A DNA stretch of 64,000 bases. Source: Actinomycetota bacterium (GTDB lineage: Bacteria; Actinomycetota; Nitriliruptoria; Nitriliruptorales; Nitriliruptoraceae). Both the position numbers and the translations under genes were made by a program. Below are positions 7,877-62,114 of this stretch, in pieces (the stretch's first letter is position 1; the number at the start of each line of letters is the position of its first letter). The stretch is taken from positions 17,973 to 81,972 of the forward strand of contig JAHWJY010000001.1 of the NCBI GenBank assembly GCA_019348135.1. The letters run 5' to 3'. A model generated the notes under the pieces. It had not been told where the DNA came from. It did no database searches and worked only from the letters and a program-made list of their open reading frames with translations.

Positions 7877-7932
7877 GCTCCTCGCCGCCCCTACCCTCGG
7901 ACGCGGACACCGGACGCGACGAGGAGGAGCGG

Positions 7933-8535
7933 GTGGCACGGGCGCACGAACGGGTGCTCGGCGTGGACGTCGACAACGTCCTCGCCGACTACACCGGCGG
8001 ACTGCGCCGGATCGTGGCCGAGGACCGCGGCGTCGACCCGGACAGCCTCGTCACGCCGACGTCGTGGTCCGCGTACGAGGAGTGGGGCTTCACCCCGGCC
8101 GAGTTCGACGAGCTCCACCGGCGCGCCGTGGTCGAGCACCGGATGTTCCGCACGCTCGAGGTGCTGCCCGGCGCCGCCGAGGTGCTGCGCGAGCTGTCGG
8201 ACCAGGGGGTGCGCATCCGCATCGTGACCCACCGGCTCTACGTCTCCGGGACGCACGCGATCGCCGCGTCGGACACCGTCGACTGGCTCGACGAGCACGA
8301 GATCCCGTACTGGGACCTGTGCATGGTCGCCCGCAAGGCGGACGTCGGCAGCGACCTGCTCATCGACGACGCCCCGCACAACGTCGAGGCGCTGCGCGAG
8401 ATCGGTCGCCAGGTGGTCGTGTTCGACCAGCCGTACAACCGCCACCTCCCGGGCCCGCGGGCCCGCGACTGGGCCCACGTCCGCGAGCTCGCCGGCCCTC
8501 TCCTCCTCGACGTCCAGCGCCTGTTCTCGCTCTGA
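7933..8535 (+). CDS. HAD-superfamily 5'(3')-deoxyribonucleotidase-like protein
   Basis: GAGGAGGAG RBS then GTG at 7933. The LGVDVDNVLAD (DxDxV) motif and ...LLIDDAPHN are NT5C-like. Confidence 0.65.
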   Translation: MARAHERVLGVDVDNVLADYTGGLRRIVAEDRGVDPDSLVTPTSWSAYEEWGFTPAEFDELHRRAVVEHRMFRTLEVLPGAAEVLRELSDQGVRIRIVTHRLYVSGTHAIAASDTVDWLDEHEIPYWDLCMVARKADVGSDLLIDDAPHNVEALREIGRQVVVFDQPYNRHLPGPRARDWAHVRELAGPLLLDVQRLFSL

Positions 8536-8624
8536 GTTCGAGAGCCTCCGGTTACGCTGCCCGAACGGTCACGCGCAGACGCCGACGTACCGTGGACGCA
8601 ACATCGGCCACAGCGCGTGAGCGA

Positions 8625-8710
8625 GCCGGCGTGTCGGAACGGCATACGAAGGCTCCTTAAAAGAGCTGGGGCGCAAGCCCATGCGGGTTCGAATCCCGCC
8701 GCCGGCACCA
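8625..8710 (+). tRNA. tRNA-Leu (anticodon UAA), CCA encoded
   Basis: Manual cloverleaf. Acceptor GCCGGCG/CGCCGGC. Anticodon arm GGCTC-CTTAAAA-GAGCT. Long variable arm GGGGCGCAAGCCCAT. T arm GCGGG-TTCGAAT-CCCGC. Ends in A + CCA. Confidence 0.9.
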
Positions 8711-8737
8711 GCCCTCGGCTCCTCCCGGTGGCGCGGA

Positions 8738-9433
8738 TCAGCGCTCGGAGGGCTCGCGATCGGTCGCCGCGTCGGCCCCCATCGTGTTCGCGGGGTAGAG
8801 CCGGCGCAGGTTGCCGGTGTCGTCGTCACGGATCAGGTGCGTCATGATCCGCTGGGTCTCGTACAGGGCCCGGTCGATCGCCCGGGCGGCGTCGTCGGGC
8901 CGGTCCATCTGCAGCGAGGCCTTGGCGATCACGAGGGCCTGTGCGACGTTGTCGGACAGCTCGAGCGCGGACTCGAACTGGATCCGGCTCGCGACGATGC
9001 GCGTCAGCGCCAGGGAGATGTGGTTCGCCAGCCGCCGTGCCGTCGGGAGCAGCGACGCCACCGGCGGGTGCTCCGTGCCGGACCAGGACAGTCCCAGGAA
9101 GTGCCGGGCGACCTCGGCGCTCTCCACCGGCAGCCGCAGCGAGACCGCGATCCCGGCCCGCTCCATCCACTCGCGCACCGCACCGGTGGCCTCGTCGCGG
9201 ACGTAGAGCTGCGTCTCGGCGGCCCGGATGCTGGCCCCGACCTCCGGCATGTCCGCGAACACCTTCAGGGTCGGCATCCGGTCCTCGGGGTACCGGGCGA
9301 CCAGGTAGGCCTGGTGGTCGTCGTACCACCACAGCGACGCCGCGTCGGTCTGCAGGACGCCGGCGGTCATCTCGACCAGGGACGCCGCGGTCGCCTGGAC
9401 GTGCTGGTCGTTGGGGTCGTAGCGCTCGCTCAC
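8738..9433 (-). CDS. GAF-domain protein with a degenerate HisKA_3-like helical tail (no phospho-His, no ATPase domain)
   Basis: AGGAGG RBS 5 nt before GTG at 9433 (VSERYDP...). The C-terminal ELSDNVAQALVIAKASLQMD resembles the ELHDxxxQxL H-box, but with Ser in place of His. Confidence 0.6.
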   Translation of the reverse strand: MSERYDPNDQHVQATAASLVEMTAGVLQTDAASLWWYDDHQAYLVARYPEDRMPTLKVFADMPEVGASIRAAETQLYVRDEATGAVREWMERAGIAVSLRLPVESAEVARHFLGLSWSGTEHPPVASLLPTARRLANHISLALTRIVASRIQFESALELSDNVAQALVIAKASLQMDRPDDAARAIDRALYETQRIMTHLIRDDDTGNLRRLYPANTMGADAATDREPSER

Positions 9434-9498
9434 CCGCACCTCCTGGGGAGAGCATCCGCTCGCCCGACGGTCGGCCAGCGGCGGAGTGTACGCGCGGG

Positions 9499-10983
9499 TC
9501 AGGGATCGAGGGGCCCGTCGAGGGAAGTCGCTCCCGCGGGCCGCTCCGCCTGGTCGGGGGTGCCGGCATCGGGGGCGCGCTCGCCGGACGTCAGGCGGAC
9601 CAGCGGCCCGTCGGCGAAGAGCCCCGCCGGTAGCTCCACGCCGATGGCCCGCCAGACGGCCGGCGGGATGCCGATGTCGGCGACGTAGAGGTCGCCGGCG
9701 TAGGGGTGGACGATCCGTTCGGCCAGCCCGCGGGCCGGCGCCCCCAGGGTGACCGTCACGTCCGCGGCGACGCACATGCCCCGGAGGCCCTCGTCGGCCC
9801 CGACGCCGCTCGGCAGGTCGAGCGAGACCACGGGGACGTCGTGGCGACGTAGCCACGTGGCCACCACCTCGGGCACGCCGCGCAGCGGGGGCGTCGCCCC
9901 GATGCCCAGCATCGCGTCGATCACGGCGTCGCCAGGGAGGAGGTCGTCGAGCGCCACCTCGCCGGCGCGGACCACCCGCACGCCCGCCAGCTCGAGCGTG
10001 CGCAGCTGGTCCGGCAGGCGCGGGTCGCCCGTCAGGAGCACCGCCACCTCCGCCCCCGCCGCCGCGAGCAACCGCGCCGCGGCGAGCCCACCCGCCCCGT
10101 TCCCGCCGGGACCGGCGGCGATCGTGACCGCCGCGCCGGCGATGCTCCGGTCCAGCAGTAGCTGGGTGGCCGTCGTGAGCGCCCGGCCGGCGTGCTCGAC
10201 GAGCGACGCCAGCGGCAGCCCCGCCGCGGCCAGGCGCCGGTCGACCTCCCGCATCGTCCCCGCCGAGACGTGCGGGACCTCCTCCTGCGGGCGCTCGGGC
10301 AGGCCGCCCAGGCGGGCCCGACGCTGCCACGCCGGCATGTGCTCCCAGGGACGGACCGCGAGCTCCTCCCCGAGGCCCTCCGGCCGGGTCCCCCCGGACC
10401 ACCTCTCCACGGCGACGTCGAGGAGCAGGGCCACGACCATCGCGGTCGCGCCCCACAGGAGGTCGCCGTCGAGCTGCCACGCCCAGGACGAACCGCGCAG
10501 CGACAGCGGCACCTGGCGCCAGCGGTCGCGTTCGAGGAGCTGGGCCAGGGGGACGCGCAGGACCTCGTCGACCTCCCACGGGTTGCAGTCGAGCTGGTGC
10601 GGCTGGCGCCACCGGGCGACCACCGGTGCCACCCAGAACCGCGACGGCGGGATGTAGAAGACCGGGCCCACGCCGAGCACCTCGACCGAGGCCGCGTCGA
10701 GCCCGATCTCCTCCTGCGCCTCCCGCAGCGCCGCCTCCTCGATCGTCTCGTCGGCGTCGAGGCGTCCGCCGGCGAACGACACCTGTCCGGGGTGGGAGCG
10801 GAGGTCGGCACGCCGGCGGGTCAGCACCAGCCCCGGCCCGTCGGCGGTCTGCTCGAGCAGCACGAGCACGGCGCCCACCCGTGCGTCGGCGGGCGGGGTG
10901 CGCTGCTCGGTGGTGACGCCGGCGAGCGCCTCCTCGAGGCGGGACCAGAAGGTCTCGCCGGCGAGGCGCGGGTCGGTGCTCAC
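9499..10983 (-). CDS. Nudix (CoA-pyrophosphatase-like) - YjeF_N (NAD(P)HX epimerase-like) fusion protein
   Basis: GTG at 10983 overlaps the ppx stop (GTGA). Nudix box: GQVSFAGGRLDADETIEEAALREAQEEIGL, preceded by LVLTRRRADLRSHPG. The C-terminal half has GPGGNGAGG and the DAMLGIG...LDLPSG motifs of YjeF_N. Confidence 0.75.
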   Translation of the reverse strand: MSTDPRLAGETFWSRLEEALAGVTTEQRTPPADARVGAVLVLLEQTADGPGLVLTRRRADLRSHPGQVSFAGGRLDADETIEEAALREAQEEIGLDAASVEVLGVGPVFYIPPSRFWVAPVVARWRQPHQLDCNPWEVDEVLRVPLAQLLERDRWRQVPLSLRGSSWAWQLDGDLLWGATAMVVALLLDVAVERWSGGTRPEGLGEELAVRPWEHMPAWQRRARLGGLPERPQEEVPHVSAGTMREVDRRLAAAGLPLASLVEHAGRALTTATQLLLDRSIAGAAVTIAAGPGGNGAGGLAAARLLAAAGAEVAVLLTGDPRLPDQLRTLELAGVRVVRAGEVALDDLLPGDAVIDAMLGIGATPPLRGVPEVVATWLRRHDVPVVSLDLPSGVGADEGLRGMCVAADVTVTLGAPARGLAERIVHPYAGDLYVADIGIPPAVWRAIGVELPAGLFADGPLVRLTSGERAPDAGTPDQAERPAGATSLDGPLDP

Positions 10984-11936: not shown

Positions 11937-12517
11937 ACCCGCGCCGACCACGTCTCGACGTCCTCCTCCGACACGCACGGTCCGCTGCACGGCACGGGGC
12001 GGGCGAGTTGCATCGTCAGCTCCCCGACCGGCCCGTCGTTCGTGGCGAGGAAGTGGGCGGCGTGCACGTGCAGGCACTTCACGTAGCGCTCGTTGCCCCC
12101 GGCACGCGGGTCACCCGGCAGCTTCTCCCCGCCCGCGAGGTCGTCCCGGAAGGCGACGTACCGCTCCGTCGCCGCGGCGTGCCCGGCCTGGAAGTCGGCA
12201 TCGGTGTCGAGCCGGTCGTTGACCGCGACCATCTCGTGGGCCGCCTCGAGCCGACCGATCTGCGAGCGCAGCGCCGGACACGTCTGCCAGAACACGGTCG
12301 GGAACGGCGTGCCGTCGTCGAGGCGTGGCGCGACGCGGACCGACGTGGGGAGACCGAACACGCAGCGGTGCACGACCGCGGACTCGCCGCGGGCGGGACG
12401 GCCGAGCTGCGCCGAGACGACGGCGCGGTCCCGGTCCGTGACCGGGCTCGCCGCGGCGGCGCGCTCGTAGGAGGCGTCGGGATCCGGGACGACCGCGTCG
12501 TCCGACGGTGGCGTCAT
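11933..12517 (-). CDS. DUF501 domain protein
   Basis: 194 aa with FPTVFWQTCP and YVKCLHVHAAH motifs. It sits between the S1 protein and ppx, as in other actinobacteria, with 4-nt overlaps on both sides. Confidence 0.75.
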   Translation of the reverse strand: MTPPSDDAVVPDPDASYERAAAASPVTDRDRAVVSAQLGRPARGESAVVHRCVFGLPTSVRVAPRLDDGTPFPTVFWQTCPALRSQIGRLEAAHEMVAVNDRLDTDADFQAGHAAATERYVAFRDDLAGGEKLPGDPRAGGNERYVKCLHVHAAHFLATNDGPVGELTMQLARPVPCSGPCVSEEDVETWSARV

Positions 12518-13005
12518 CGCTCCCGGCCGAGCCGCGCACGGGCCTGCCGGCGTCGCGCGCCCTGGATCATCTGGGACCGGTGCATGAACCGGCGCAGCTT
12601 GCGGTTGAAGTCCTTGTCGATCTGGGACCGCAGCCGCGGCTCCTCGTCGTCCTGCCAGTCCGGGTCGGCGCGCTTGATCGAGAGGTCGACCTTGCCGTCG
12701 GGCTTGACCTCGCGCACCTTGACCTCGACCTCGTCCCCCTCGGCCAGGTAGGCGTAGATGTTGTCGACGAAGTCGGTGTCGACCTCGGAGACGTGGACGA
12801 GGCCGGTCACGGGCTCACCCCCGTCGCCGTTGGGCGGGACCTCGACGAAGGCGCCGTACTCCTCGAGACGGACGACCTTGCCCTGCACGATGCTTCCCTG
12901 CTGAACCAGTGGGATCAACTCCTCGGGTATCGCGGATACGTCCTCCCACCGTAGGAACGACCGCCCCGACCGCACAAGGCGGGACGGTCGGACGTTCGTC
13001 GGCAC
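12514..13005 (-). CDS. S1 RNA-binding domain protein
   Basis: The GSIVQGKVVRLEEYGAFVEV...GLVHVSEV...GDEVEVKVREV S1 fold motif, then a basic tail. The start (GTG 13005) is uncertain. Confidence 0.8.
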   Translation of the reverse strand: MPTNVRPSRLVRSGRSFLRWEDVSAIPEELIPLVQQGSIVQGKVVRLEEYGAFVEVPPNGDGGEPVTGLVHVSEVDTDFVDNIYAYLAEGDEVEVKVREVKPDGKVDLSIKRADPDWQDDEEPRLRSQIDKDFNRKLRRFMHRSQMIQGARRRQARARLGRER

Positions 13006-13011
13006 CGGTCG

Positions 13012-13047
13012 TTGACACGATGTTACGAATTGCCTATGTTTGTAACA
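13012..13047 (+). promoter_or_regulatory. sigma-70-type promoter (TTGACA-17 nt-TATGTT) overlapped by the inverted repeat TGTTAC-N15-GTAACA
   Basis: TTGACA at 13012-13017 and TATGTT at 13035-13040. Inverted-repeat arms at 13021-13026 and 13042-13047. This is a locally AT-rich patch in very GC-rich DNA, 24-59 nt upstream of ATG 13071. Confidence 0.55.
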
Positions 13048-13070
13048 CGACCCACCGCGCAGGAGACCCG

Positions 13071-14192
13071 ATGAGCACCCACCGCTACGCGCTCCCCCTC
13101 GAGGAGACCCGCTGGAACATCCCGGGGGTCGCGTCGACCGTTGCGTTCAACTGGGAGTACGACAGCGGGCGCCAGCGCATGCTCAACCTGTACGAGAAGG
13201 GCAAGGACAAGCAGTGGAACACCCAGACCCGGATCGACTGGTCGCACGAGGTCGACACCTCGAACCAGGAGATGGCCCCGGACGAGATCGTGCCGATCTT
13301 CGGCTCGGCCCCGTGGGAGAAGATGAGCCGCGCCGAGAAGGACGAGGTGCGCCACCACTACGTCGCCTGGACGAACTCCCAGTTCCTCCACGGCGAGCAG
13401 GGTGCCCTCGTCTGCTCCGCGAAGATCGTCGAGACCGTCCCGGACATGGACTCGAAGTTCTACGCCGCGACCCAGACGATGGACGAGGCCCGCCACGTCG
13501 AGACCTACGCGAAGTTCATCAACGAGAAGCTCGACCTCTGCTACCCGATCAACGAGTCGTTGCAGTCGCTGCTGAACCAGACGATCACGGACAAGCGCTG
13601 GGACTTCACCTACCTCGGCATGCAGGTGATGATCGAGGGCGTCGCGCTCGCCGCGTTCTCGATGATCCGCGACTTCACCGGTGACCCCCTCGGCAAGGCC
13701 ATCAACGCCTACGTGATGCAGGACGAGGCACGCCACATCGCGTTCGGTCGGCTGGCCCTGAAGGACGCCTACGCCGACATCACCGAGGCCGAGCGCGCCG
13801 AACGCGAGGAGTTCGTCGTGGAGGCGAGCTACCTCCTGCGCGACCGCTTCCTCGCCAAGGAGGTGTGGGACAACCTCGGCATGGACGGCGACGAGATGGC
13901 GGCCTACGTCGACAAGCACCAGATGATGACCGAGTTCCGCAAGGCGCTGTTCAGCCGCGTCGTGCCGACCGTGAAGGACATCGGGCTGTGGGGCCCCGAG
14001 GTGCAGAAGGCCTACATCGACATGGGCGTGATGCAGTTCCAGGACCTCGACGTCGACGAGCTGTCGGACAACGACGAGCGCATCGCCGAGGAGCTCGAGG
14101 AGCTGCTCGCCCGCCGGAAGGACGAGGGCGTGCTCACCGACGACGGCTCGCGCGCGGCCGCCATGGCCGAGACCATCGCCGCCGGCGAGTAG
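13071..14192 (+). CDS. ferritin-like di-iron carboxylate protein (oxygenase/R2-like superfamily)
   Basis: AGGAG RBS then ATG at 13071. Two EXXH motifs (QTMDEARHVE, VMQDEARHIA) with partner Glu residues (FLHGEQG, MIEGVA). Confidence 0.7.
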   Translation: MSTHRYALPLEETRWNIPGVASTVAFNWEYDSGRQRMLNLYEKGKDKQWNTQTRIDWSHEVDTSNQEMAPDEIVPIFGSAPWEKMSRAEKDEVRHHYVAWTNSQFLHGEQGALVCSAKIVETVPDMDSKFYAATQTMDEARHVETYAKFINEKLDLCYPINESLQSLLNQTITDKRWDFTYLGMQVMIEGVALAAFSMIRDFTGDPLGKAINAYVMQDEARHIAFGRLALKDAYADITEAERAEREEFVVEASYLLRDRFLAKEVWDNLGMDGDEMAAYVDKHQMMTEFRKALFSRVVPTVKDIGLWGPEVQKAYIDMGVMQFQDLDVDELSDNDERIAEELEELLARRKDEGVLTDDGSRAAAMAETIAAGE

Positions 14193-34942: not shown

Positions 34943-35017
34943 TGGCTGGGAGGCAGGGGATCGAACCCTGAATACCGACTCCAAAGGACGGCGTGTTGCC
35001 GATTACACCACCTCCCA
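34943..35017 (-). tRNA. tRNA-Gln (anticodon UUG), CCA encoded
   Basis: Manual cloverleaf on the minus strand: TGGGAGG-TG-GTGT-AATCGGCA-ACAC-G-CCGTC-CTTTGGA-GTCGG-TATT-CAGGG-TTCGATC-CCCTG-CCTCCCA-G-CCA. There is one U-U mismatch in the anticodon stem. U1-A72 is typical of tRNA-Gln. Confidence 0.85.
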
Positions 35018-48742: not shown

Positions 48743-50748
<2,006 letters not shown>

Positions 50749-50761
50749 GTCCCGGCTCGTG

Positions 50762-51604
50762 TCAGCCCGTGGGCAGGTGCAGGACGTCGCCCTCCACCGC
50801 CACGCGGACCGGTCGCGTCGCGTCCGCGTACGCCGCGGCGATGGCGTCGAGCTCGGGATCGGTACGGGCCGGATCGTGGTGGAACAGCAGCAGCGAGCCG
50901 ACGTCGCAGACGTCCGCGAGCCCGACGGCGTAGTCGATGGTGCTGTGACCGAAGTCGGCGCGGGCGCCGAACTCCGAGCGCGTGTACTGGGCGTCGTGGA
51001 GCAGGAGGTCGACGCCGTCGACGAGCTCCCGGGCCGCCGGGTGGTACGGGCCGAAGCCGTCGGGGCCGGGGCCGAGCCCGAACGGGTGGTGGTCCGAGAG
51101 GTAGGCGAGGCTGCCGCTGGCGTCGCTCACGCGGTAGCCGAAGGTGCGGCCGCCCTTGTGCGGGATCTCGCGGGCGAGGACCTCGAACCCCTCGATGACC
51201 GTCGTGCCCTCCTCCAGGGCGACGAACCGCCACGCCCCGCGGAGCTGGTCGGGACGGATCGGGAAGTGCGGCGGGGACATCCCGCGCGCGAGCACCTCCA
51301 CCGGGTCACCTCCCTGCGCCGGCAGGTAGAGGTCGACGCGCGCCCGGGGATCGTCGCCGGCGCGGAAGAACGGCAGCCCCTGGGTGTGGTCCCAGTGGAG
51401 GTGGCCGAGCAGGATCGAGCCGTCGAAGGCCGCGCCGTCGAGCAGCGCGGCGACGCGACGCAGGCCGGTCCCGGCATCGAGCAGGAGCGACGGCGGCTCG
51501 CCGTCGTGGGCCAGGGCCACGCACGAGGTGTGGCCCCCGTAGCGGACGGACTCGGGGCCGGGGGTGGGGGTCGAGCCCCGGGACCCGCAGATGTGGACCT
51601 GCAG
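50762..51604 (-). CDS. MBL-fold metallo-hydrolase (candidate cyclic-nucleotide phosphodiesterase); start unresolved
   Basis: HxHxDH motif LLGHLHWDHTQG. The conserved N-terminal strand LQVHICGSRGSTPTPG lies upstream of the first ATG/GTG (51520) in the same frame. The only plausible start there is CTG 51604, after GAGGA. Confidence 0.7.
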   Translation of the reverse strand: MQVHICGSRGSTPTPGPESVRYGGHTSCVALAHDGEPPSLLLDAGTGLRRVAALLDGAAFDGSILLGHLHWDHTQGLPFFRAGDDPRARVDLYLPAQGGDPVEVLARGMSPPHFPIRPDQLRGAWRFVALEEGTTVIEGFEVLAREIPHKGGRTFGYRVSDASGSLAYLSDHHPFGLGPGPDGFGPYHPAARELVDGVDLLLHDAQYTRSEFGARADFGHSTIDYAVGLADVCDVGSLLLFHHDPARTDPELDAIAAAYADATRPVRVAVEGDVLHLPTG

Positions 51605-51668
51605 CCTCGTTCCGTCCTCGCGCGTGCGTCTGGGGCGACAACCGGCCGTCGGGCCGGCGCCACGTCGA

Positions 51669-52673
51669 TCAGGTGACGGGAGTCTCGCGCCGGTGGCCCG
51701 TGGCCAGCTGCGCCAGGGCGTCCCGGTCGATCTGACCCGCTGCGGCGACCGCGACCTTACAACCCGTCACGGCGCGCAACGTCGAGGTCCGCGCCCCACC
51801 CTCGAGGATGGCCCGCTCCCCCACGATCGCCCCCGGACCGAGCTGCGCCAGGACCTCACCGTCGACCTCCACCTCGAGCACCCCGTCCAGGAGCAGGTAG
51901 AGGTCGTCACCGTCGGATCCCTGCTCCGTGAGGAGCTCGCCCGCCCCGAGCCGGTCGATCCGGGGCGACGTGCCGGAGCGCATGATCGTCAGGGACAGCT
52001 GCCGTTCGAGCTCCGTCTCGACCTGGGTGATGAGGGCCGGCGTGTCGACGTCCCCCCACGGGGTGTTGTCGCCGAAGTGTTCGCGAGACCACGTCGAGAA
52101 GTCGGTGATGCCGCTCTTCGCGACGAGCCGACCGTCGCCGTCGTAGATCCAGTGACGCGGGAAGGGGCTCGCACCGCGCACCTCGTGCTCGACCCGACCG
52201 TCCGCGTGCAGGGTGAGCGACAGCGTCGTCCAGGCGGTCGGCGGGGAGATCCGCACGAAGGGCGGCTTGCTGACCCGACGGGGCATCGGCGCGCCGGTCC
52301 TGCCGCCCGACGTCTGCTCGAACCGGACCCACCCGTCCCCGACCTCGGGCTCCGGCCGCAGGTCCGGGAACGCGACGGGCTGGAAGGCGAACACCTTGCG
52401 GGACCCGAGGTGCACGTCGGTCGTGGAGATGTAGCTGCGGCCGAGGTGCTCCCACCCCGCGATACGGCCGTCGCCGTCGACCTCGATGGCCGCCGACAGG
52501 AGGTTGGCGAAGCGGAACCGTCCCTCCTCGTTCAGCAGCTGCAGGTCCTCGACGTGGTCCGGCGGCGGGTCGTCGTAGTGGCCGATCCCGATGTCCATGG
52601 GGATCCGCATGTGGCCGCTGATCGCCTCGGACGGGATCCACGAGATGGAGAAGACCTTCGCTTCGATACGCAT
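51669..52673 (-). CDS. protein with unrecognised ~240-aa N-terminal domain and C-terminal cyclic-nucleotide-binding (CNB) domain
   Basis: ATG at 52673 (MRIEAKVFSISWIPSE...). C-terminal CNB features: GELLTEQG..LYLLLDGVLEV... and a phosphate-binding cassette GERAILEGGARTSTLRA. Confidence 0.75.
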   Translation of the reverse strand: MRIEAKVFSISWIPSEAISGHMRIPMDIGIGHYDDPPPDHVEDLQLLNEEGRFRFANLLSAAIEVDGDGRIAGWEHLGRSYISTTDVHLGSRKVFAFQPVAFPDLRPEPEVGDGWVRFEQTSGGRTGAPMPRRVSKPPFVRISPPTAWTTLSLTLHADGRVEHEVRGASPFPRHWIYDGDGRLVAKSGITDFSTWSREHFGDNTPWGDVDTPALITQVETELERQLSLTIMRSGTSPRIDRLGAGELLTEQGSDGDDLYLLLDGVLEVEVDGEVLAQLGPGAIVGERAILEGGARTSTLRAVTGCKVAVAAAGQIDRDALAQLATGHRRETPVT

Positions 52674-52770
52674 GCCCGGCTCCTGCTGCTCGGATGCTGC
52701 GAGTGTCCGCGGCCACGTCACCGGTGTCGCTGGTGCCTTCGGGTCGATCGGGGTGGGGACAGCACCACCC

Positions 52771-55011
52771 TCAGGCCGTCGGCGCGGCGGTGGTGACGCG
52801 GTCCGTGGCGGCGACCGGGATGCGGCCCTCGACGCGTGTCCCCCGCCCCGGCGCCGAGTCGATCGACACGTGCCCCCCGAGCGCGTCGAGCCGGTCACGC
52901 ATGTTCTGCAGTCCCGCGCCGTCCCCGATGTCGGACGTGTCGAACCCCGCCCCGTCGTCGACGACCGCGAAGCGCAGGAAGCCGCCCTCGTCGGACAGCT
53001 CGAGCCGCACCAACGACGCCTCGGCGTACTTCGCCACGTTCTGCAGCGCCTCGAGGCAGCAGAAGTAGACGGCCGCCTCGATGTCCTGGCCGTAGCGGTC
53101 GAGCTCGCCGCTCTCGACCACCACGGGGAGGTGGAAGCGCTCCGCGCGGGAGCCGAGCGCGGTGGTGAGCCCGCGCTCCGCCAGGAGCGGCGGGTAGATG
53201 CCGTGCGCGAGCTCGCGCAGCGTCTTGACGGCCTCCTCGGCCTCGTCGGCGAGCTGCCCCAGGAGATCGTCGACGTCACGACCCATCTGGACCATCCGCT
53301 GCGCGAGTCCGAGCTTGACCCGCAGCGACACGAGCTGCTGTTGGGCCCCGTCGTGGAGGTTGCGCTCCAGGCGCCGGCGGACCTCGTCCTGGGCCGTGAT
53401 GACGCGTTGCCGTGATTCCACCAGCTGCGCCACGTGCTCGAGGAGCTCGGCGGTCAGGCGGACGTTCCGCAACAGCAGTCCGGCCTGACCGGCGAGGGTG
53501 TGGAGGAGCCGCTGGTCGACCGGCGCGAGCGAGCCGTCCCCGGGCAGGGTCAGTGCCAGGACCCCGAGCAGCTCGCCGTCGTGGCGCACCGGCACGGCCA
53601 CGGATGCCGGTAGCGCCGGGAGGTCGTCGCCGGTGAGCGGGAGGGGGCGGTGCGGGGCGCCGCCCCCGGGCCACGACGCCGCGGGTCGGAGCTCGTCGCC
53701 GATCCGGAGCCAGATGTCCGACCGACGGGCCGCGGTGCCCTCACCGAGCACCTGGGCCAGCCTCACGAGCTTGTCCTCGGTCTCGGTCTCCTCACCCACC
53801 TGGGTCGAGAAGTCGGCGAGGGTCTCGAGCGGGGTCGCACGGCGGCCGTAGACCATGCGGTCGGCGAGCCGCTTGACGCGCTCCCGTGCCGGCTCGAACG
53901 CGATCGCGACCAGGCCCGTCGCGACGACCGACAGCACGAGGTTGTCGTTCTGGGCGCCGACCAGCCGTCCGATGCCGACCACCACGCCGACGTACACGAG
54001 GGTGACCAGTCCAGCCAGGCTCGTGTAGGTCAGGGCCCGCGTGATGATGCGGTCGATGCCCCACAGCCGGAAGCGCACCACGCCGGCGAACAGCGCCAGC
54101 GGGATGATCGCGAAGACCGGCTGGAAGACGCGGAACAGCTCGACCGGGATGATGGCGATCGAGCGGCCCCCGTAGACCTCGAACGCCGACGCCGTCGAGC
54201 CGCGCGCCACGACGTAGAGACCGAGCACCAACGCCGGTGCGAGCGCCCAGAACATGGTCCGCGCCTGGGCCCGCTCGGCGGTGCCGGTGGCCCGGGCCAG
54301 TCGGTAGGCCTGGGCCGCGACGCCGACGGCCGGCGTGAGCAGCCCGAACACGATCAGGACCGCGAGCGTGCGCGAGGTCCCGCTGATGCGGAAGGCGACC
54401 ACGCCGACGGTCACGCTCACGATCCCGTAGAGGCCGGCCAGCCGGACCGGCGACCAGCGCGGGACGGGACGGCCGTCGGGGAAGACCAGCAGGGCCGCGA
54501 TGTAGGCCCCCGCGGCGACCACGTGGAAGGCCACGTTGCCGGCCTGATCGAGGAACGAGGCCTGCATCTGCTCGTAGACCGCGTACGCCTGGAGGTTGAA
54601 CACGGCCGCCGTGCCGACGAGCGCGACCGCCAGCAGCCGGGCGGTGCGTTCCCGGGGGCGGAGCCACAGGAGGAACCCGGCCAGGGCGAGGTTGACGAGG
54701 CTGAAGGCGTAGTCGAGCACGAGGCCCCACGCCGGCTCGGCCGCGTGGCTGGCATCCGCCACGGCCGCGAACCGCGGTGCGAGCGCGCCGCTCGTGAACG
54801 CGAGCTCATGCAACCGGTCGTGGAGGCCGAGTGGCAGCGCCAGCGCGGCGGCCAGCCCGGCCATGAGCGCCACCACGGCGTAGGCGACGTACACGGCCAG
54901 TCCGACGGCGAAGGCCCAGTCGGCGCTGCGCCACGACCGCAGCGCGGACCCGGCACCGCCGGCCGGAGCGGTCGCTCCGGTCGGCGGGTCCGAGACCTCA
55001 GCGGCGCTCAT
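52771..55011 (-). CDS. multi-TM sensor histidine kinase with GAF domain, HisKA_3 and HATPase_c (NarL-partner type)
   Basis: ATG at 55011. About 8 N-terminal TM helices, a GAF-like region, the H-box LERNLHDGAQQQL and the ATPase motifs LEALQNVAKY, DDGAGF, GLQNMRDRL. Confidence 0.9.
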   Translation of the reverse strand: MSAAEVSDPPTGATAPAGGAGSALRSWRSADWAFAVGLAVYVAYAVVALMAGLAAALALPLGLHDRLHELAFTSGALAPRFAAVADASHAAEPAWGLVLDYAFSLVNLALAGFLLWLRPRERTARLLAVALVGTAAVFNLQAYAVYEQMQASFLDQAGNVAFHVVAAGAYIAALLVFPDGRPVPRWSPVRLAGLYGIVSVTVGVVAFRISGTSRTLAVLIVFGLLTPAVGVAAQAYRLARATGTAERAQARTMFWALAPALVLGLYVVARGSTASAFEVYGGRSIAIIPVELFRVFQPVFAIIPLALFAGVVRFRLWGIDRIITRALTYTSLAGLVTLVYVGVVVGIGRLVGAQNDNLVLSVVATGLVAIAFEPARERVKRLADRMVYGRRATPLETLADFSTQVGEETETEDKLVRLAQVLGEGTAARRSDIWLRIGDELRPAASWPGGGAPHRPLPLTGDDLPALPASVAVPVRHDGELLGVLALTLPGDGSLAPVDQRLLHTLAGQAGLLLRNVRLTAELLEHVAQLVESRQRVITAQDEVRRRLERNLHDGAQQQLVSLRVKLGLAQRMVQMGRDVDDLLGQLADEAEEAVKTLRELAHGIYPPLLAERGLTTALGSRAERFHLPVVVESGELDRYGQDIEAAVYFCCLEALQNVAKYAEASLVRLELSDEGGFLRFAVVDDGAGFDTSDIGDGAGLQNMRDRLDALGGHVSIDSAPGRGTRVEGRIPVAATDRVTTAAPTA

Positions 55012-55025
55012 CGTGGCCGCGATCC

Positions 55026-56330
55026 CTACGCCTCCTCGACGACGACGCTGCCGACCATCGCCGGGTGGACCAGGCAGGCGTACGAGTACCGGCCCGGCTC
55101 GGTGAACGTCACGCTGTACGTACCGTCGAAGAACATCCCCGAGGACAGGAACGACCTTCCGTCCCAGGTCCCGGCGTCCACCGCCACCGGCTCCGGCGGC
55201 GGGCCGCCCGGCGGGCCCCCGCCTTCGCCCTCGCCTTCGCCGCCGGGCGCACCCTCACCCTCGGCCTCTCCCTCGCCCGGGGGCGGACCCTCGGCGGCCG
55301 GATGGCCCGGGCCGCCGCGGGGCTGCAGCGCGTCCGGACTGAAGATGACCGTGCCGTCGTCCTCGATCGAGAGCTGGGTGAAGTAGTCGGGGACGTTGAA
55401 GCTGACGGTGTGCCCGCCCACGAAGGACCACGTGATCGACTCCCCGACCGTGACGGTGTTCTCCTTGGGGATGAACTCGTCGATCACCGCGTGGGTCGTG
55501 GTGGGCTCGTCCGAGCCCCAGCCCGCGTACGGCTTGCGGACCTCCTGGCCGAAGATCGTGGCCGCGTCGGAGGCGCGTGCCTCCTCCAACGCCGCAGCGA
55601 GCGGCGCGGTGACCTCCTCGATCTCGGCGAGCGCCTGCCGGGCGACGTCCGCCTCCGACGGGATCTCCTCGTCCGCCCCGACGACCGTGATCGTCCCCGC
55701 CTGGAACGGCCCGTGGACGTTGCAGTAGTAGGCGTAGGTGCCCGGCTCGATGTCGTTCGCCAGCACGACGTCGAACGTGTTGCCGCGCTCGCCGGCGTAG
55801 GGGATGAACCCGGAGTTGTAGTACGACTGGCGGCCGTCGAAGGCTGGCTGCTCCTGCTGCTCGTCGGTGCAGGGCTCCATGGGGTCCTCCGGCGGCGCAC
55901 CCTCGTCGAGGTAGCACGGCTGGCCGACGTTCTGGTTCACCGGTCCGCCCTCGAGGGTGTCGGGGAGCATGTACGGCAGTGCCGCCGACGCCGCCATGAA
56001 CTCCTCGAACACCTCCGGCGGGATCTCGTCGTCGGGGAGGTGGCCGTACTTCTCGATGAGCGGTGAGATGACCCCCATCATCTCGTCGACCATCGTGCCC
56101 ATGGTCACCGAGTGCGGCTCCCCGGTCCACTCCTGGCGGAAGTTGACGGTGTCGCCGGGGCGCAGCGTCACGTCCCGCGGGAAGTACGCCAGGTACGAGG
56201 CCGCGAACTCGTCGTGCACGTAGTCGACGAGCACCTCACGCGACTGCGCGCCCCCGGCATCGCCGCCGCACGCCGCCCCCACCGCGGCTAGCGCACCCGC
56301 CGCCACCACGATCGCCATCCGTCCACGCAT
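55026..56330 (-). CDS. lipoprotein with two cupredoxin-like (type-1 copper) modules
   Basis: Lipobox AVGAAC. Module 1: GEPHSVTM ... YYCNVHGPFQAG. Module 2: GGHTVSF ... YACLVHPAMVG. A Gly/Glu/Pro-rich insert lies within module 2. Its stop is 14 nt upstream of the kinase start. Confidence 0.75.
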   Translation of the reverse strand: MRGRMAIVVAAGALAAVGAACGGDAGGAQSREVLVDYVHDEFAASYLAYFPRDVTLRPGDTVNFRQEWTGEPHSVTMGTMVDEMMGVISPLIEKYGHLPDDEIPPEVFEEFMAASAALPYMLPDTLEGGPVNQNVGQPCYLDEGAPPEDPMEPCTDEQQEQPAFDGRQSYYNSGFIPYAGERGNTFDVVLANDIEPGTYAYYCNVHGPFQAGTITVVGADEEIPSEADVARQALAEIEEVTAPLAAALEEARASDAATIFGQEVRKPYAGWGSDEPTTTHAVIDEFIPKENTVTVGESITWSFVGGHTVSFNVPDYFTQLSIEDDGTVIFSPDALQPRGGPGHPAAEGPPPGEGEAEGEGAPGGEGEGEGGGPPGGPPPEPVAVDAGTWDGRSFLSSGMFFDGTYSVTFTEPGRYSYACLVHPAMVGSVVVEEA

Positions 56331-56565
56331 CCTGCGGCTCCCGTCCCCTGCCCCGTGGCCACGGCGTGCGCCGCCGACCGTGGGCATCTTCGCCGAGGCG
56401 CCGAGGACGGCGGAAGGGTACGTCCCTGCGTATGCGACGTGTGGCTAGCACCACCATGGATGCGGAGGCGGCCACCCCTTGCCCCCATGCGCGCCAGCGG
56501 CGACCATCCGGGTCCGCTCGACCTCCTCCTCGCCGGAGAGCGCTCCGGCCGCCTCCGGGAGACCG

Positions 56566-57879
56566 ATGACCGCAGCCGCGCACATCAGCGTCTTCCTCGC
56601 CGACGACAACCTGATCGTCCGCGAGGGGGTCCGGGCGCTCCTGGACCTCGAGGACGACATCGAGGTCGTCGGTACCGCCGGCGACTACGACGGGCTGGTC
56701 GCCGGGGCGGAGGAGGCGAACCCGAACGTCGTCGTGACCGACATCCGTATGCCGCCGGACTTCCGCCGCGAGGGCATCGAGGCCGCCAAGGAGGTCCGCA
56801 AGCGGCATCCGGGGACGGGCATCGTGATCCTCAGCCAGTACGACGACCCGGAGTACGCGGTCTCGCTCCTGTCCGAGGGCGCCGCCGGCTACGCCTACCT
56901 CCTGAAGGACCGCGTCGGCGAGGGTGACCAGCTCGCGCGTGCGGTCCGCGAGGTGGCGTCGGGGGGCTCGATGCTCGATCCGACCATCGTCGAGTCGTTG
57001 ACCCGCCCCGTCGCCCCCGTCTCGGGCCTGTCCCGCGAGGAGGAGCAGCTGCTGACCGCGATCGCGGAGGGCCGGCCGATCAAGGCGATCGCTGCCCAGC
57101 GTCGGACCACGGCCGCCGCGGTCGACGCCGAGATCGAGAAGCTGTGGGTCAAGCTCGCCGCCGGGTTGTCCGCCGGCGACAGCAGCAGTCTGGAACGGTT
57201 GAAGATGCTCCACCGGGCCATCATCGACCGGGAGGAGCAGGGTGAGAGCCTGTCACGACTGCTCCCGGCGGGGCTCGCCGAGAAGCTCCACGCCGAGGGC
57301 CGGCGACCCGGGGAGTCCGAGGAGCTCGTCGTCACCGTGCTGATGAGCGATATCCGCAGCTACTCCACGATCGCCGAACGGACCGACCCGTCGCTGCTGG
57401 CCAGGCAGCTGCACGAGCACCGCGGTGCCATGAACCGGGCCGTGCACGCGGCCGGCGGTACGGTCATGCAGTTCGTCGGTGACGCGGTGATGGCCGTCTT
57501 CGGGGCGCCGTCCCCGAGCCCCGACCACGCCGACCGGTCCGTGACCGCGGCGGCCGCCATGCACGCCGCCCAGGACGCCGTCAACGAGCGCTGGGCCGGC
57601 CAGGGGCTCGAGCCGTTCGGCCTCGGGATCGGGCTGTCGACGGGCAGGGTCGCAGCGGCCATCCTCGGCTCGGAGGAACGCCTCGAGTACTCGCTCGTCG
57701 GCGACACGGTGAACCTCACCCAGCGGCTCCAGCAGTGGGCCGAGCCCGGCGAGACGGTGCTCATCGAGGCCACCCGGGCGGCGTTGGAGCGACCGCTCAC
57801 CTGCGAGAAGCTCGAGCCGTCGCTGGTGAAGGGGCGTGCACACCCGGTGGTGGCCTACCGGTTCCCGCCCCGCGGCTGA
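56566..57879 (+). CDS. response-regulator receiver - LuxR-type HTH - class III nucleotidyl cyclase fusion
   Basis: REC: FLADDN, VVVTDIRMPP, ILSQY, AYLLKD. HTH: LSREEEQLLTAIAEGRPIKAIAA. Cyclase: VLMSDIRSYS, FVGDAVMAVFG, GDTVNLTQR. Confidence 0.85.
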   Translation: MTAAAHISVFLADDNLIVREGVRALLDLEDDIEVVGTAGDYDGLVAGAEEANPNVVVTDIRMPPDFRREGIEAAKEVRKRHPGTGIVILSQYDDPEYAVSLLSEGAAGYAYLLKDRVGEGDQLARAVREVASGGSMLDPTIVESLTRPVAPVSGLSREEEQLLTAIAEGRPIKAIAAQRRTTAAAVDAEIEKLWVKLAAGLSAGDSSSLERLKMLHRAIIDREEQGESLSRLLPAGLAEKLHAEGRRPGESEELVVTVLMSDIRSYSTIAERTDPSLLARQLHEHRGAMNRAVHAAGGTVMQFVGDAVMAVFGAPSPSPDHADRSVTAAAAMHAAQDAVNERWAGQGLEPFGLGIGLSTGRVAAAILGSEERLEYSLVGDTVNLTQRLQQWAEPGETVLIEATRAALERPLTCEKLEPSLVKGRAHPVVAYRFPPRG

Positions 57880-57897
57880 CCACGAGCCGGCGGTGGC

Positions 57898-58269
57898 TCA
57901 GGCGACCGCCGCACCGTTCCATGCCTCCTCGAGCGCGTCGGGCGTGAAGGCCGACTTCGACACGAACGCGATCGCCCCCGCCTCGGTCGCCCGGGGGCCG
58001 TACTCGGTCGCCTCGTAGGTCGACAGCACGACCACGCGGATCGAGCTCGCCCCGGCGAGGATCCGCCGGGTCGCCTCGAGCCCGTCGATGCCCGGGAGGT
58101 TCACGTCCATCAGCACGAGATCGGGATGCAGGTCGAGCGCCTTCGCGACGGCCTCCTCCCCGGTCTCCGCCTCGTCGAGGACCTCGAAGTCGTCGGTCAT
58201 CTCGACCACCATCCGTGCCGCAGAGCGGAACGGCGCCTGGTCGTCGACGATCAGGACTCGCACAGCCAC
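57898..58269 (-). CDS. stand-alone response-regulator receiver (CheY-like)
   Basis: AAGGAG RBS then GTG at 58269. Motifs LIVDDQ, LVLMDVNLPG, VVVLSTY, AFVSKS. No output domain. Confidence 0.88.
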   Translation of the reverse strand: MAVRVLIVDDQAPFRSAARMVVEMTDDFEVLDEAETGEEAVAKALDLHPDLVLMDVNLPGIDGLEATRRILAGASSIRVVVLSTYEATEYGPRATEAGAIAFVSKSAFTPDALEEAWNGAAVA

Positions 58270-58396
58270 GTCGGCTCCTTCTCGGGAGGCGAGGGTCGCC
58301 CACCGGTCGGATCGGAGCCAGCCTGCCAGCACGGGACCTCGTGGTGTGGTTACCACTACCGCCCGAACGGGTCCTCCCGGCCGTTCGCGGCATGGT

Positions 58397-59065
58397 TCAG
58401 TCGGACTGGGCTCCGAGGAAGACCAGCACCGCCTGGACGCGCCGGTGGGTGTCGCCCTCGTTGGACAGGTCGAGCTTGTCGAAGATCGAGTTGATGTGCT
58501 TCTCGACGGCACGCTCGGTGACGAACAGGGCGCCCGCGATGGCCGAGTTGTTCTTTCCCTTCGCGATCTCCGCGAGCACCTCGGTCTCGCGCGGGGTCAG
58601 CCGGTCGAGCGACGACGACGGCTGGCTCGTGCGCGCCACGACGAGCGAGTCGACGACCTTCGGATCGATGACCGATCCCCCGGCGGCGACGGCCCGGATG
58701 GCCTCGTGCAGCTGGTCGATGTCCCCGACGCGCTCCTTCAGCAGGTAGGCGCGTCCCTGTGAGCCGCTGTCGAACAGGCTCAGGGCGTAGCTCGCGTCGG
58801 CGTACTGGCTGAGCACCACCACGCCCGTGTCGGGGTGGCTCTCACGCAGGCGCTCGGCCGCCCGGATCCCCTCGTCGGTGCCGGTCGGCGGCATCCGGAT
58901 GTCGGTCAGCACGACGTCGGGGTTGTGCTCGTCGACGGCCGCGTACAGGCCGTCGAGATCCTCGACGACGGCGACGAGCTCGACGTCGTCGAGCTCGGCG
59001 AGGAGCAGCTTCACGCCCTCACGGACGAGGTAGCTGTCCTCGGCCAGGACCACGCGGATCGACAT
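58397..59065 (-). CDS. NarL/FixJ-family response regulator (REC + LuxR HTH)
   Basis: ATG at 59065. Motifs VVLTDIRMPP, VVVLSQY, AYLLKE. HTH: LTPRETEVLAEIAKGKNNSAIAGALFVTERAVEKHINSIFDKL. Confidence 0.93.
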   Translation of the reverse strand: MSIRVVLAEDSYLVREGVKLLLAELDDVELVAVVEDLDGLYAAVDEHNPDVVLTDIRMPPTGTDEGIRAAERLRESHPDTGVVVLSQYADASYALSLFDSGSQGRAYLLKERVGDIDQLHEAIRAVAAGGSVIDPKVVDSLVVARTSQPSSSLDRLTPRETEVLAEIAKGKNNSAIAGALFVTERAVEKHINSIFDKLDLSNEGDTHRRVQAVLVFLGAQSD

Positions 59066-59114: not shown

Positions 59115-59966
59115 TCAGAGGAACACGGGGAACCGGCGCTTCGCCGCCAGACGGTCCATACCGGCCTGGATCGCGGCCTCGACGTGCTCGTAGACCTGAC
59201 GGTGGAGGTCCTCGTCGGACGCGTCCTCCGGTCCCGCGTCGAGGTCGATGGGATCGAGGAACTCGGTGCGGATCTTCGCCGGCAGGGGCAGGTGCATCGG
59301 GACCGTCTCGATCGCGATCCCGAACGGTGGACCGACCACGATCGGCACCTTCGCGGCACGGAAGCGGTCCCCGAGGCCGCCGAGACGGGCGATCCACCCA
59401 CCCTCGTTCACGACGAAGACGGTGTCGTGCCCGCCGACGGTCGCGACCGGCACGATCGGCACCTGCTGCTCGACGGCCATCCGCACGAACCCCGTGCGAC
59501 CGCCCAGCACCGCGGTGTCCCGCTTGCGCCAGTGCCGCATCGAGTCCTTCTCGCCGCCCGGCCACACGATCACGTCGTCGCCCGCCGCCAACGCGGCCGA
59601 GACGGCGTCGCCGGACGCCGGCAGGACCCCCATGCGACGGAAGTAGTCGCCCAGGCCGGGCGCCGCCATCAGCACGTCGTGGGCCGTGCCGTGGAGGAAC
59701 CGGTCGGGCCCGAAGTGGCGCCACCACGCGTAGATGAGCGTCCACGCGTCCATCGTGAGCGCGGCGCCGGAGTGGACCCCGACGAGGAGACATGGCGGGT
59801 CGGGCAGCCGTTCCCAGCCATCGACCTCGAGCCGGAAGTAGTACCGGCAGAGCGCGTCCCAGACGGGCTCCTGGAGGCGCATGAGGTGCTCGCTGTAGCC
59901 ACCCTCACCATCGCCGCGTCGCCACTCGAGCAACGACCTGATCGGCCCGTTCCCGTCGTCGGCCAT
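59115..59966 (-). CDS. PlsC-like lysophospholipid/glycerolipid acyltransferase family protein
   Basis: LLVGVHSGAALTMD and VIVWPGGEKDS blocks resemble acyltransferase motifs I and III. Confidence 0.55.
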   Translation of the reverse strand: MADDGNGPIRSLLEWRRGDGEGGYSEHLMRLQEPVWDALCRYYFRLEVDGWERLPDPPCLLVGVHSGAALTMDAWTLIYAWWRHFGPDRFLHGTAHDVLMAAPGLGDYFRRMGVLPASGDAVSAALAAGDDVIVWPGGEKDSMRHWRKRDTAVLGGRTGFVRMAVEQQVPIVPVATVGGHDTVFVVNEGGWIARLGGLGDRFRAAKVPIVVGPPFGIAIETVPMHLPLPAKIRTEFLDPIDLDAGPEDASDEDLHRQVYEHVEAAIQAGMDRLAAKRRFPVFL

Positions 59967-62037: not shown

Positions 62038-62114
62038 TGGTGGAGGTGATCGGATTTGAACCGACGGCCCCTTCGTTGCGAACGAAGTGCTCTGCCGAAC
62101 TGAGCTACACCCCC
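62038..62114 (-). tRNA. tRNA-Ala (anticodon CGC), CCA encoded
   Basis: Manual cloverleaf: GGGGGTG-TA-GCTC-AGTTCGGCA-GAGC-A-CTTCG-TTCGCAA-CGAAG-GGGCC-GTCGG-TTCAAAT-CCGAT-CACCTCC-A-CCA. The G3-U70 wobble, the Ala identity element, is present. Confidence 0.92.

Follow-up and report, generated by a model that had tools for sequence, protein, structure and literature searches.

Seven genes and two copies of a palindromic operator, located within a 64,000-nucleotide stretch of an Actinomycetota genome of the family Nitriliruptoraceae (assembly GCA_019348135.1, contig JAHWJY010000001.1, positions 17,973 to 81,972; hereafter referred to as the window), are interpreted as a branched two-component circuit which governs a cyclic-nucleotide second messenger and appears to regulate its own genes. 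A probability of approximately 0.6 is assigned to this interpretation, which is based on directly observed domain content, intact catalytic and phospho-acceptor residues, synteny and a shared operator. The conserved core of the cassette consists of a response regulator carrying a nucleotide cyclase (candidate writer), which is divergently oriented to a pair of genes encoding a protein with a cyclic-nucleotide-binding (CNB) domain (candidate reader) and a metallo-beta-lactamase-fold (MBL) hydrolase (candidate eraser). A sensor kinase, a NarL-type paralogue of the cyclase and a stand-alone receiver (REC) are regular companions of this core. Features of the cassette, with lengths in amino acids (aa), are as follows:

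50762–51604, minus strand: MBL-fold metallo-hydrolase, 280 aa, candidate cyclic-nucleotide phosphodiesterase (Lactamase_B_2, PF12706)
51669–52673, minus strand: CNB protein, 334 aa, candidate reader (cNMP_binding, PF00027, aa 241–314; beta-rich N-domain, aa 1–235)
52752–52769, unstranded: operator copy 1, GGTGGGGACAGCACCACC (pattern match, directly after the kinase stop codon)
52771–55011, minus strand: sensor histidine kinase, 746 aa (multiple transmembrane segments, GAF, HisKA_3, HATPase_c)
55026–56330, minus strand: tandem-cupredoxin lipoprotein, 434 aa (Copper-bind, PF00127)
56438–56455, unstranded: operator copy 2, CGTGTGGCTAGCACCACC (pattern match, in the divergent cupredoxin/cyclase promoter region)
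56566–57879, plus strand: response-regulator cyclase, 437 aa (Response_reg, degenerate NarL-type four-helix module, helical linker, Guanylate_cyc)
57898–58269, minus strand: stand-alone receiver, 123 aa (Response_reg, PF00072, 3e-23)
58343–58360, unstranded: weaker operator-like palindrome, GGTGTGGTTACCACTACC (13/18, between the NarL stop and the REC start)
58397–59065, minus strand: NarL/FixJ-type response regulator, 222 aa (Response_reg, GerE)

Given that the window has a G+C content of approximately 73%, reading frames were judged by the G+C content at third codon positions (GC3). All seven frames featured GC3 values of 0.93–0.96 and overlapping alternative frames showed no such values, which identifies the seven frames as coding. 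A preliminary description of this locus had placed seven genes and their domains at these coordinates, and GC3, Pfam and NCBIfam results bear this out; the gaps of 14, 97, 64 and 235 nucleotides (nt) given there are all correct. The same description had the REC and NarL genes following the cyclase gene. Their positions are accurate, but both genes are encoded on the minus strand and are convergent with the cyclase gene.

Conservation of the cassette across two phyla

Relatives of the CNB protein were encoded in at least 590 stretches of a collection comprising one genome per GTDB species, and the best 80 loci were kept and searched by tblastn with the proteins of the window. A subset of 35 loci featuring at least 8 kb on both sides is referred to as the full-flank set. 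The best 80 loci span Nitriliruptoria and Egibacteraceae, Acidimicrobiia, Geodermatophilaceae, Nocardioidaceae, Streptosporangiaceae, Dormibacterota and metagenome-assembled genomes (MAGs) labelled as Chloroflexota. A cyclase orthologue (65–75% identity over the full length) was divergent from and adjoining the CNB gene in 36 of the 70 loci with enough flanking sequence, and 35 of 71 loci contained an MBL orthologue (51–75% identity) directly downstream of the CNB gene and in the same orientation. Within the 80-locus set, the distance from the CNB to the MBL gene is mostly 0–15 nt, or the two genes overlap.

Of the full-flank loci, 22 contain a cyclase, 19 an MBL gene, 18 a related HisKA_3 kinase, 17 a single REC and 16 the NarL paralogue, which was found exclusively in loci that also contain the cyclase (16/16). 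Genes for the kinase, the NarL paralogue and the single REC mostly reside within 10 kb of the CNB gene. The three core proteins show identities of approximately 55–75% together with stable synteny across Actinomycetota and Dormibacterota. Conservation of the neighbourhood in related genomes had been named as a check in the preliminary description, and the outcome is affirmative. Two phyla share this neighbourhood, which comprises the cyclase, the CNB protein, the MBL hydrolase, the HisKA_3 kinase, the NarL paralogue and the REC.

Gene order within the cassette varies. In the window, the cupredoxin–kinase pair is situated between the cyclase and the CNB gene, whereas in L001, a MAG of the Egibacteraceae, cyclase, cupredoxin and kinase genes follow each other on one strand (approximately 7100–9800), divergent from the CNB and MBL genes, indicating that the cupredoxin–kinase pair was moved or inverted relative to the window. 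In L081, which encodes a 75% relative, the cyclase was called as a 106-aa fragment only (7509–7829), and the CNB gene has no MBL gene downstream but is followed by a 398-aa open reading frame (ORF) without a Pfam match and by split kinase ORFs; this arrangement could be due to degradation of the cassette or to misassembly. Six Dormibacterota loci (L003, L004, L007, L032, L046 and L072) contain no MBL gene. Approximately 1 to 10 kb downstream of the CNB gene, these loci share a lineage-specific block, identified by eye, that includes a methylmalonyl-CoA-mutase-like gene and a gene for a GAF-GGDEF-EAL protein, among others.

The cassette of the window is flanked by a glutamate dehydrogenase gene (ELFV_dehydrog, 49318–50748, plus strand) and an acyltransferase gene (PF01553/DAGAT-like, 59115–59966, minus strand). 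Neither gdhA nor the acyltransferase gene ever recurs beside the cassette in other genomes, and both genes therefore mark its borders. In the locus encoding a 91% relative, the genes beyond the MBL gene likewise differ from those of the window.

Core proteins and their regulatory companions

The response-regulator cyclase matches the receiver profile PF00072 with 61 bits and the class III cyclase profile PF00211 with 76.5 bits (cut-off 21.9). More than 7,600 homologues of equal length and 71–77% identity were retrieved. No variation was seen in any phospho-acceptor residue of the REC or in any catalytic residue: across 48 cyclase sequences, D13, D14, D59, S90 and K114 of the receiver are invariant, and so are the metal-binding aspartates D262 and D306 and the transition-state residues N383 and R387, which align with those of the solved structures 2w01 and 3r5g.

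Substrate specificity of class III cyclases depends on a position which is occupied by Lys in adenylyl and by Glu in guanylyl cyclases, and on a second position. In the 48 cyclase sequences, the Lys position corresponds to the invariant Gln302, and residue 376, at the second position, is Ser or Thr, as in class IIIb enzymes; the adenylyl-specific pairing of Lys with Asp or Thr is absent. The closest solved cyclase is 2w01, the guanylyl cyclase Cya2 of Synechocystis. Gln302 faces Glu in this structure and Lys in the engineered variant 6fht. Since Gln302 replaces Lys, the product of the cyclase is uncertain: cyclic AMP (cAMP) is predicted as the most likely product, and cyclic GMP (cGMP) or a mixed product is the alternative left by the combination of Gln with Ser/Thr.

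Residues 7–197 of the cyclase and 3–198 of the NarL regulator are colinear and share 49% identity (E = 3e-56), with nearly identical alpha-1 helices, so that the paralogy of receiver and linker noted previously is real. Furthermore, full-length models and structures of NarL, MctR and DevR align to aa 7–200 of the cyclase. A LuxR-type helix-turn-helix (HTH), as ascribed to the cyclase in the preliminary description, is thus backed by homology to the NarL paralogue, but its DNA-contact residues are lost, and Pfam GerE was not reported in the protein. In the cyclase family, A/T, D/E, A/D and E, respectively, are found where the paralogue has R185, K189, H190 and N192. Because residues invariant in the DNA-binding paralogue are missing, the LuxR-like module probably represents a structural or dimerisation element and not a second DNA-binding output. 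It is followed by a conserved helical segment, LERLKMLHRAIIDREEQGESLSRLLPGGLAEKL, which resembles the LLxxxLPxxIAxxL end of the cyclase transducer element.

The NarL regulator itself combines a receiver (PF00072, 58.5 bits) with a GerE domain (PF00196, 50.3 bits). Its recognition helix, TERAVEKHINSIF (family form T/S-E-R-A-V-E-K-H-I-N-S-I-F), is invariant in 26 sequences. Orthologues of the single REC (45–72% identity) were found in 29 loci, mostly beside the NarL paralogue.

The CNB domain of the candidate reader was recognised by PF00027 with 52.9 bits (cut-off 27.5; E = 3.7e-14). Its phosphate-binding motif GERA...RT[AS]T is kept, with G285-E286-x-A288 and R295-T296 being invariant or nearly so, and the domain superposes on the CNB domains of PKA, PKG and CRP in Foldseek searches. 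Searching with the N-domain retrieved more than 7,700 proteins carrying generic names, nearly all of them of approximately 330 aa with the same architecture of N-domain plus CNB domain and approximately 60% identity; clustering at 50% yielded 1,189 representatives. Unusually long relatives contained no informative extra domains, except for one co-occurrence with an MBL domain and likely artefacts. The former is P0386 of the representative library, which joins an N-domain fragment and Lactamase_B_2 in a single ORF of 487 aa with room for a CNB domain between them. This protein could be a natural CNB–MBL fusion or a read-through or assembly artefact.

For the N-domain (aa 1–235), no Pfam match was obtained even at E ≤ 10, and a sequence-profile search of the PDB gave no match either. 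TIR or transmembrane features were not found in it. As Foldseek results for the full-length model were swamped by CNB-domain matches, the N-domain was refolded separately with AlphaFold2, resulting in a mostly beta-stranded model (pLDDT 83.8, pTM 0.79). The sole significant fold match in the PDB was 3c5p (BAS0735 of Bacillus anthracis, function unknown), at a TM-score of approximately 0.5 and 15% identity, and Foldseek against BFVD returned no viral structural match. The domain, which had been termed unrecognised in the preliminary description, thus matches no Pfam family, and its one fold partner is uninformative. Many polar and aromatic residues of the N-domain are invariant, e.g., in QTxGGRTGxPxPR and GASPFPRHWxY, which suggests a defined binding or catalytic site.

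The MBL protein matches PF12706 with 59.9 bits (3.4e-16), and its HLHWDH motif (fold signature HxHxDH) as well as the other metal ligands are invariant in 41 MBL sequences. Of the NCBIfam models, only NF041851 (cyclic nucleotide-degrading phosphodiesterase) aligns over the full length (aa 3–276); this model served as a proxy for the Rv1339 sequence. All 13 MBL family members scanned match both NF041851 (best E-value 8e-12) and RNase Z models, in each case below the cut-offs; the window protein scored 31.8 bits against the NF041851 cut-off of 400. RNase Z models give the strongest sequence matches, but only over the C-terminal third. Moreover, the family profile matches RNase Z, ELAC1 and YhfI (6kns) in the PDB, and JGI names of family members are 'phosphoribosyl 1,2-cyclic phosphodiesterase' or 'ribonuclease BN'. 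Atypical class-II phosphodiesterases are defined by PF12706 together with [T/S]HxHxDH and have been placed next to RNase Z (PMC9293780). The window protein carries GHLHWDH, i.e., Gly instead of Thr/Ser before the motif, as do most of its orthologues, and a few have Ser/Thr; it thus lacks the published signature. From its sequence, the hydrolase is classified as belonging to a separate family in the neighbourhood of RNase Z and the atypical class-II phosphodiesterases and not as a demonstrated member of either. Its designation as an eraser, raised in the preliminary description, is favoured by fold, metal ligands and operon context, but not by the family cut-off, and is an inference.

Regarding the start of the MBL gene, position 51604 corresponds to a CTG codon, and no ATG, GTG or TTG occurs between the in-frame stop at 51769 and a GTG at 51520. 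This CTG and the N-terminus it opens (LQVHICGSRGSTP) are kept in the 91% relative, for which the gene caller took a shorter ORF of 249 aa. Members of the family are 272–296 aa long and begin with M-[RK]-x-x-x-x-G-x-RGST. The lack of a canonical start, the conserved N-terminus and the family length make CTG at 51604 the likely start codon, and the extent of 50762–51604 given previously for this gene is reasonable on that assumption.

The sensor kinase features approximately ten hydrophobic segments within aa 45–375, ahead of its GAF, HisKA_3 (PF07730, 40.5 bits) and HATPase_c (PF02518, 38.6 bits) domains, and an H-box of the sequence LHDGAQQ, which places it among HisKA_3 kinases. Related kinases with alignments reaching the transmembrane/GAF region were found in 30 loci. 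The lipoprotein encoded directly upstream matches PF00127 with 40.4 bits, and its two halves align internally (E = 2e-4). Its N-terminus contains the lipobox-like AAVGAAC, and both predicted copper sites, H73...C203xxH206xxxQ210 and C419xxH422xxM425 with GGHTVSF upstream, conform to the type-1 ligand set His...Cys-x2-His-x(2-4)-Met/Gln. The cupredoxin was found in four genomes only (the window, L001, L051 and L061), and its gene immediately precedes the kinase gene in each of them. It is thus a lineage-specific add-on of the kinase. Sensing by the kinase through this protein had previously been suggested; the restriction to four genomes argues against a general sensor of the cassette.

A cluster-specific palindromic operator

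Alignment of cyclase/CNB intergenic regions by eye revealed a cluster-specific palindrome, GGTGGTGCTAGCACCACC, which is close to GGTGGTGC-TA-GCACCACC. Sites were scored as matches out of 18 positions, and the pattern applied to the whole window allowed up to three mismatches. Exactly two matches were obtained in the 64-kb window compared to 0.03 expected, and none of 100 shuffles reached two. Copy 1 is located 79–96 nt upstream of the CNB start, with equivalent sites in other genomes, and copy 2 lies 111–128 nt upstream of the cyclase ATG.

Scores of at least 13/18 were reached in 19 of 35 cyclase/CNB intergenic regions versus 1.3% of shuffles, the best-scoring sites being mostly positioned 65–130 nt ahead of the CNB gene. 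Sequences preceding the single REC gene, which were not used for the consensus, contained such sites in 19 of 29 cases versus 1% of shuffles; in other genomes, strong copies reside 51–60 nt upstream of this gene. At a threshold of at least 15/18, 25 sites were detected in 1.2 Mb of loci, nearly all of them intergenic and adjoining CNB, cyclase, single REC or kinase genes. As a control, regions upstream of the MBL gene, which lie inside the CNB coding sequence, yielded 2 of 40, near the shuffle rate. Regions upstream of the NarL gene (4/25) were far below the REC set, yet above 1% of shuffles.

Short palindromes of this kind are typical of GerE/NarL-type dimers. The NarL paralogue is the likely operator-binding protein predicted from sequence, as its recognition helix is invariant and the contact residues are lost in the cyclase. 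A CRP-type site was also considered for the palindrome and rejected: GTG and CAC are spaced by N4 or N10, and not by N8 as in the CRP consensus TGTGA-N6-TCACA.

Scans for promoters, terminators, Rfam families and tRNAs detected no element within the gene cluster. Elsewhere in the window, genes for tRNA-Leu(taa) (8625–8710), tRNA-Gln(ttg) (34943–35017) and tRNA-Ala(cgc) (62038–62114) were found, and the local G+C content dips to 0.68 at 12001–14000, compared to approximately 0.74 in the remaining window.

Proposed circuit, competing explanations and known systems

Based on these results, the following circuit is proposed. The membrane kinase, with its transmembrane, GAF and HisKA_3 parts, would phosphorylate two paralogous NarL-type receivers and possibly also the stand-alone REC; a shared kinase for both receivers is suggested by their 49% identity and near-identical alpha-1 helices. 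In the lineage of the window, the extracytoplasmic cupredoxin lipoprotein may assist the kinase as a copper- or redox-sensitive component. The phosphorylated NarL paralogue would bind the palindrome and adjust the cyclase/cupredoxin, CNB–MBL and REC promoters, and phosphorylation-driven dimerisation of the second receiver would assemble the cyclase homodimer and thereby lead to nucleotide synthesis. The CNB domain of the 334-aa protein would read the nucleotide and control the N-domain. Finally, the MBL hydrolase, translationally coupled to the CNB gene in most genomes, would degrade the nucleotide and reset the signal. Phosphotransfer partners, cyclase product, phosphodiesterase activity, operator-binding protein and output of this circuit are inferred from the observations described above.

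Several points weigh against the proposed circuit. The functions of all cassette members are assigned from sequence and synteny alone, and the cassette is incomplete in approximately one third of the full-flank loci, with neither cyclase nor MBL gene within 8–10 kb in 8 of 35. Regarding individual components, the Gln at the substrate-specifying Lys position speaks against a firm product assignment, and both the low NF041851 score of the MBL protein and the Gly preceding its motif speak against a phosphodiesterase. Sequence and fold searches with the N-domain give no functional clue. Moreover, the NarL paralogue was assigned to the operator by elimination only, and the operator consensus was drawn from part of the data on which it was first scored; the results for the REC-upstream set and for the whole window do not depend on its derivation. 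A more far-reaching version of the circuit, in which the N-domain would represent a new class of effector or enzyme controlled by a cyclic nucleoside monophosphate (cNMP), the cyclase would produce cGMP, a mixed product or a non-canonical cNMP, and the whole would constitute a core, hitherto unnoticed self-regulating pathway of Actinomycetota and Dormibacterota, is regarded as rather doubtful.

Alternatively, the CNB and MBL proteins could be the regulatory and catalytic subunits of one cyclic-nucleotide-activated phosphodiesterase, the true outputs being the NarL branch and CNB proteins encoded elsewhere. The two genes are usually separated by 0–15 nt or overlap, and 35 of 71 loci contain them as a pair. 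Furthermore, one ORF encodes both an N-domain fragment and an MBL domain in the case of P0386, and MBL-fold class II phosphodiesterases of Dictyostelium likewise carry CNB domains. However, a split enzyme leaves the 235-aa N-domain unexplained, with its identity of approximately 60% across phyla and its many invariant polar residues; the CNB protein also occurs without an adjoining MBL gene in about half of the loci, and P0386, a single case, could result from read-through or misassembly. This explanation is considered unlikely. The hydrolase might also act, like RNase Z or PhnP, on another phosphodiester, possibly a substrate or product of the N-domain, as its strongest matches, the JGI names and the score far below the phosphodiesterase cut-off would allow. 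On the other hand, the sole full-length NCBIfam model for this protein is that of a cyclic-nucleotide phosphodiesterase, its gene is part of a conserved operon with the CNB protein near the cyclase, and RNase Z is also closely related to the characterised phosphodiesterases of the Rv1339, CpdA and YhfI type, so that a different substrate of this type appears clearly unlikely.

An analogy to Pycsar anti-phage defence had been drawn in the preliminary description; in such a system, the cyclase would respond to infection and the CNB effector would kill or arrest the cell. PADLOC indeed reports matches of PycC models to the cyclase domain (best 2.5e-21) and of models for Pycsar effectors to the CNB domain (approximately 3e-08), and the neighbours of the CNB domain in structure and sequence include that of PycTIR (8jsk), but these PADLOC matches reflect generic cyclase and CNB domain similarity. 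Identities of approximately 55–75% and stable synteny across two phyla are unlike the sporadic distribution of patchy, fast-evolving defence islands. Moreover, no TIR, transmembrane or nuclease effector domain was found, no viral protein of BFVD matched the N-domain structurally, a degrading enzyme is encoded in the same operon, and the input is a membrane two-component kinase. A defence function is therefore judged very improbable, and the analogy, resting on generic domain matches and conflicting with identity and synteny across phyla, is not upheld. It is barely conceivable that the genes are mere neighbours without a common function: gene order varies, with the cupredoxin–kinase pair inserted, inverted or absent, and about one third of the full-flank loci have no nearby cyclase, but the same families recur together in two phyla and a cluster-specific operator is common to three promoter regions. 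Overall, the earlier interpretation of the locus is partly supported, namely for the conserved neighbourhood, but neither for the cupredoxin as a general sensor nor for the Pycsar analogy.

The proposed circuit shares individual elements with known systems. CyaC of cyanobacteria is a receiver-controlled class III cyclase. The same applies to ACR of Dictyostelium (PMC3009899). As in these proteins, a class III cyclase and a two-component receiver are united in one polypeptide; in CyaC and ACR, a phosphorelay gates cAMP synthesis, as is proposed for nucleotide synthesis here. CyaC and ACR are hybrid kinase–receiver–cyclases, whereas here a soluble, complete NarL-type regulator carries the cyclase, and a separate HisKA_3 kinase as well as a DNA-binding paralogue are encoded in the cluster. 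Rv0386 of Mycobacterium tuberculosis (cyclase, ATPase and LuxR HTH) features Gln/Asn at the substrate-selecting positions. Like the window cyclase, it combines a cyclase and a LuxR-type module in one protein with non-canonical substrate residues, but its domain order is reversed, it has no receiver, and it contains an AAA/TPR region. A LuxR census ascribed an 'alternative substrate-binding mechanism' to Rv0386 and reported cyclase–LuxR fusions only in Mycobacterium. The family of the window cyclase escapes such censuses because Pfam GerE misses its HTH.

The MBL hydrolase resembles Rv1339, CpdA and YhfI (PMC9293780) in PF12706, the HxHxDH motif, proximity to RNase Z, a length of approximately 250–280 aa and the full-length NCBIfam match. 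It differs from them by its score (31.8 versus 400 bits) and the Gly before the motif, and it represents a distinct, separately conserved family that is always tied to the CNB gene. In Sinorhizobium, genes for cyclases, Clr and SpdA are clustered. CyaD1/CyaD2/CyaK, Clr and SpdA act there as cyclases, receptor and phosphodiesterase of one pathway (PMC4222275). In contrast to the cassette described here, the reader of that pathway is a Crp-type transcription factor and the phosphodiesterase a class III metallophosphoesterase, and it has neither a two-component input nor an unknown effector domain. Pycsar systems likewise pair a class III-like cyclase with a CNB-containing protein; the window cassette deviates from them in how it is conserved, in the wiring of its input, in having a hydrolase of its own and in lacking a toxic effector domain. 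In the REC-GGDEF regulators PleD and WspR, phosphorylation-induced dimerisation of the receiver assembles a dimeric nucleotide cyclase. The activation logic proposed for the window cyclase would be the same, with a different catalytic fold and with c-di-GMP being the messenger of PleD and WspR.

Receiver-gated cyclases, cyclase–LuxR fusions, MBL-fold cAMP phosphodiesterases and writer–reader–eraser loci are already known. New are the cyclase attached to a complete NarL-type regulator with a degenerate HTH alongside a DNA-binding paralogue in the same cluster, the CNB protein with an undescribed effector domain, the dedicated MBL family and the cluster-specific operator, all kept across two phyla. 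The literature search found no description of the cassette or of a REC-LuxR-cyclase, in agreement with the earlier remark that a phosphorelay-wired version with this effector domain was not recognised as described.

For each of the core proteins, thousands of relatives exist among Actinomycetota and Dormibacterota of soils and sediments, and their identities of approximately 55–75% point to a central physiological role. None of the three has been named so far, and the cassette brings together a sensor, a writer, a reader, a probable eraser and a predicted operator. The known range of bacterial cNMP signalling would thereby be extended by the architecture of a whole NarL-type response regulator fused to a cyclase, a new CNB-linked effector domain and possibly an unusual nucleotide specificity.

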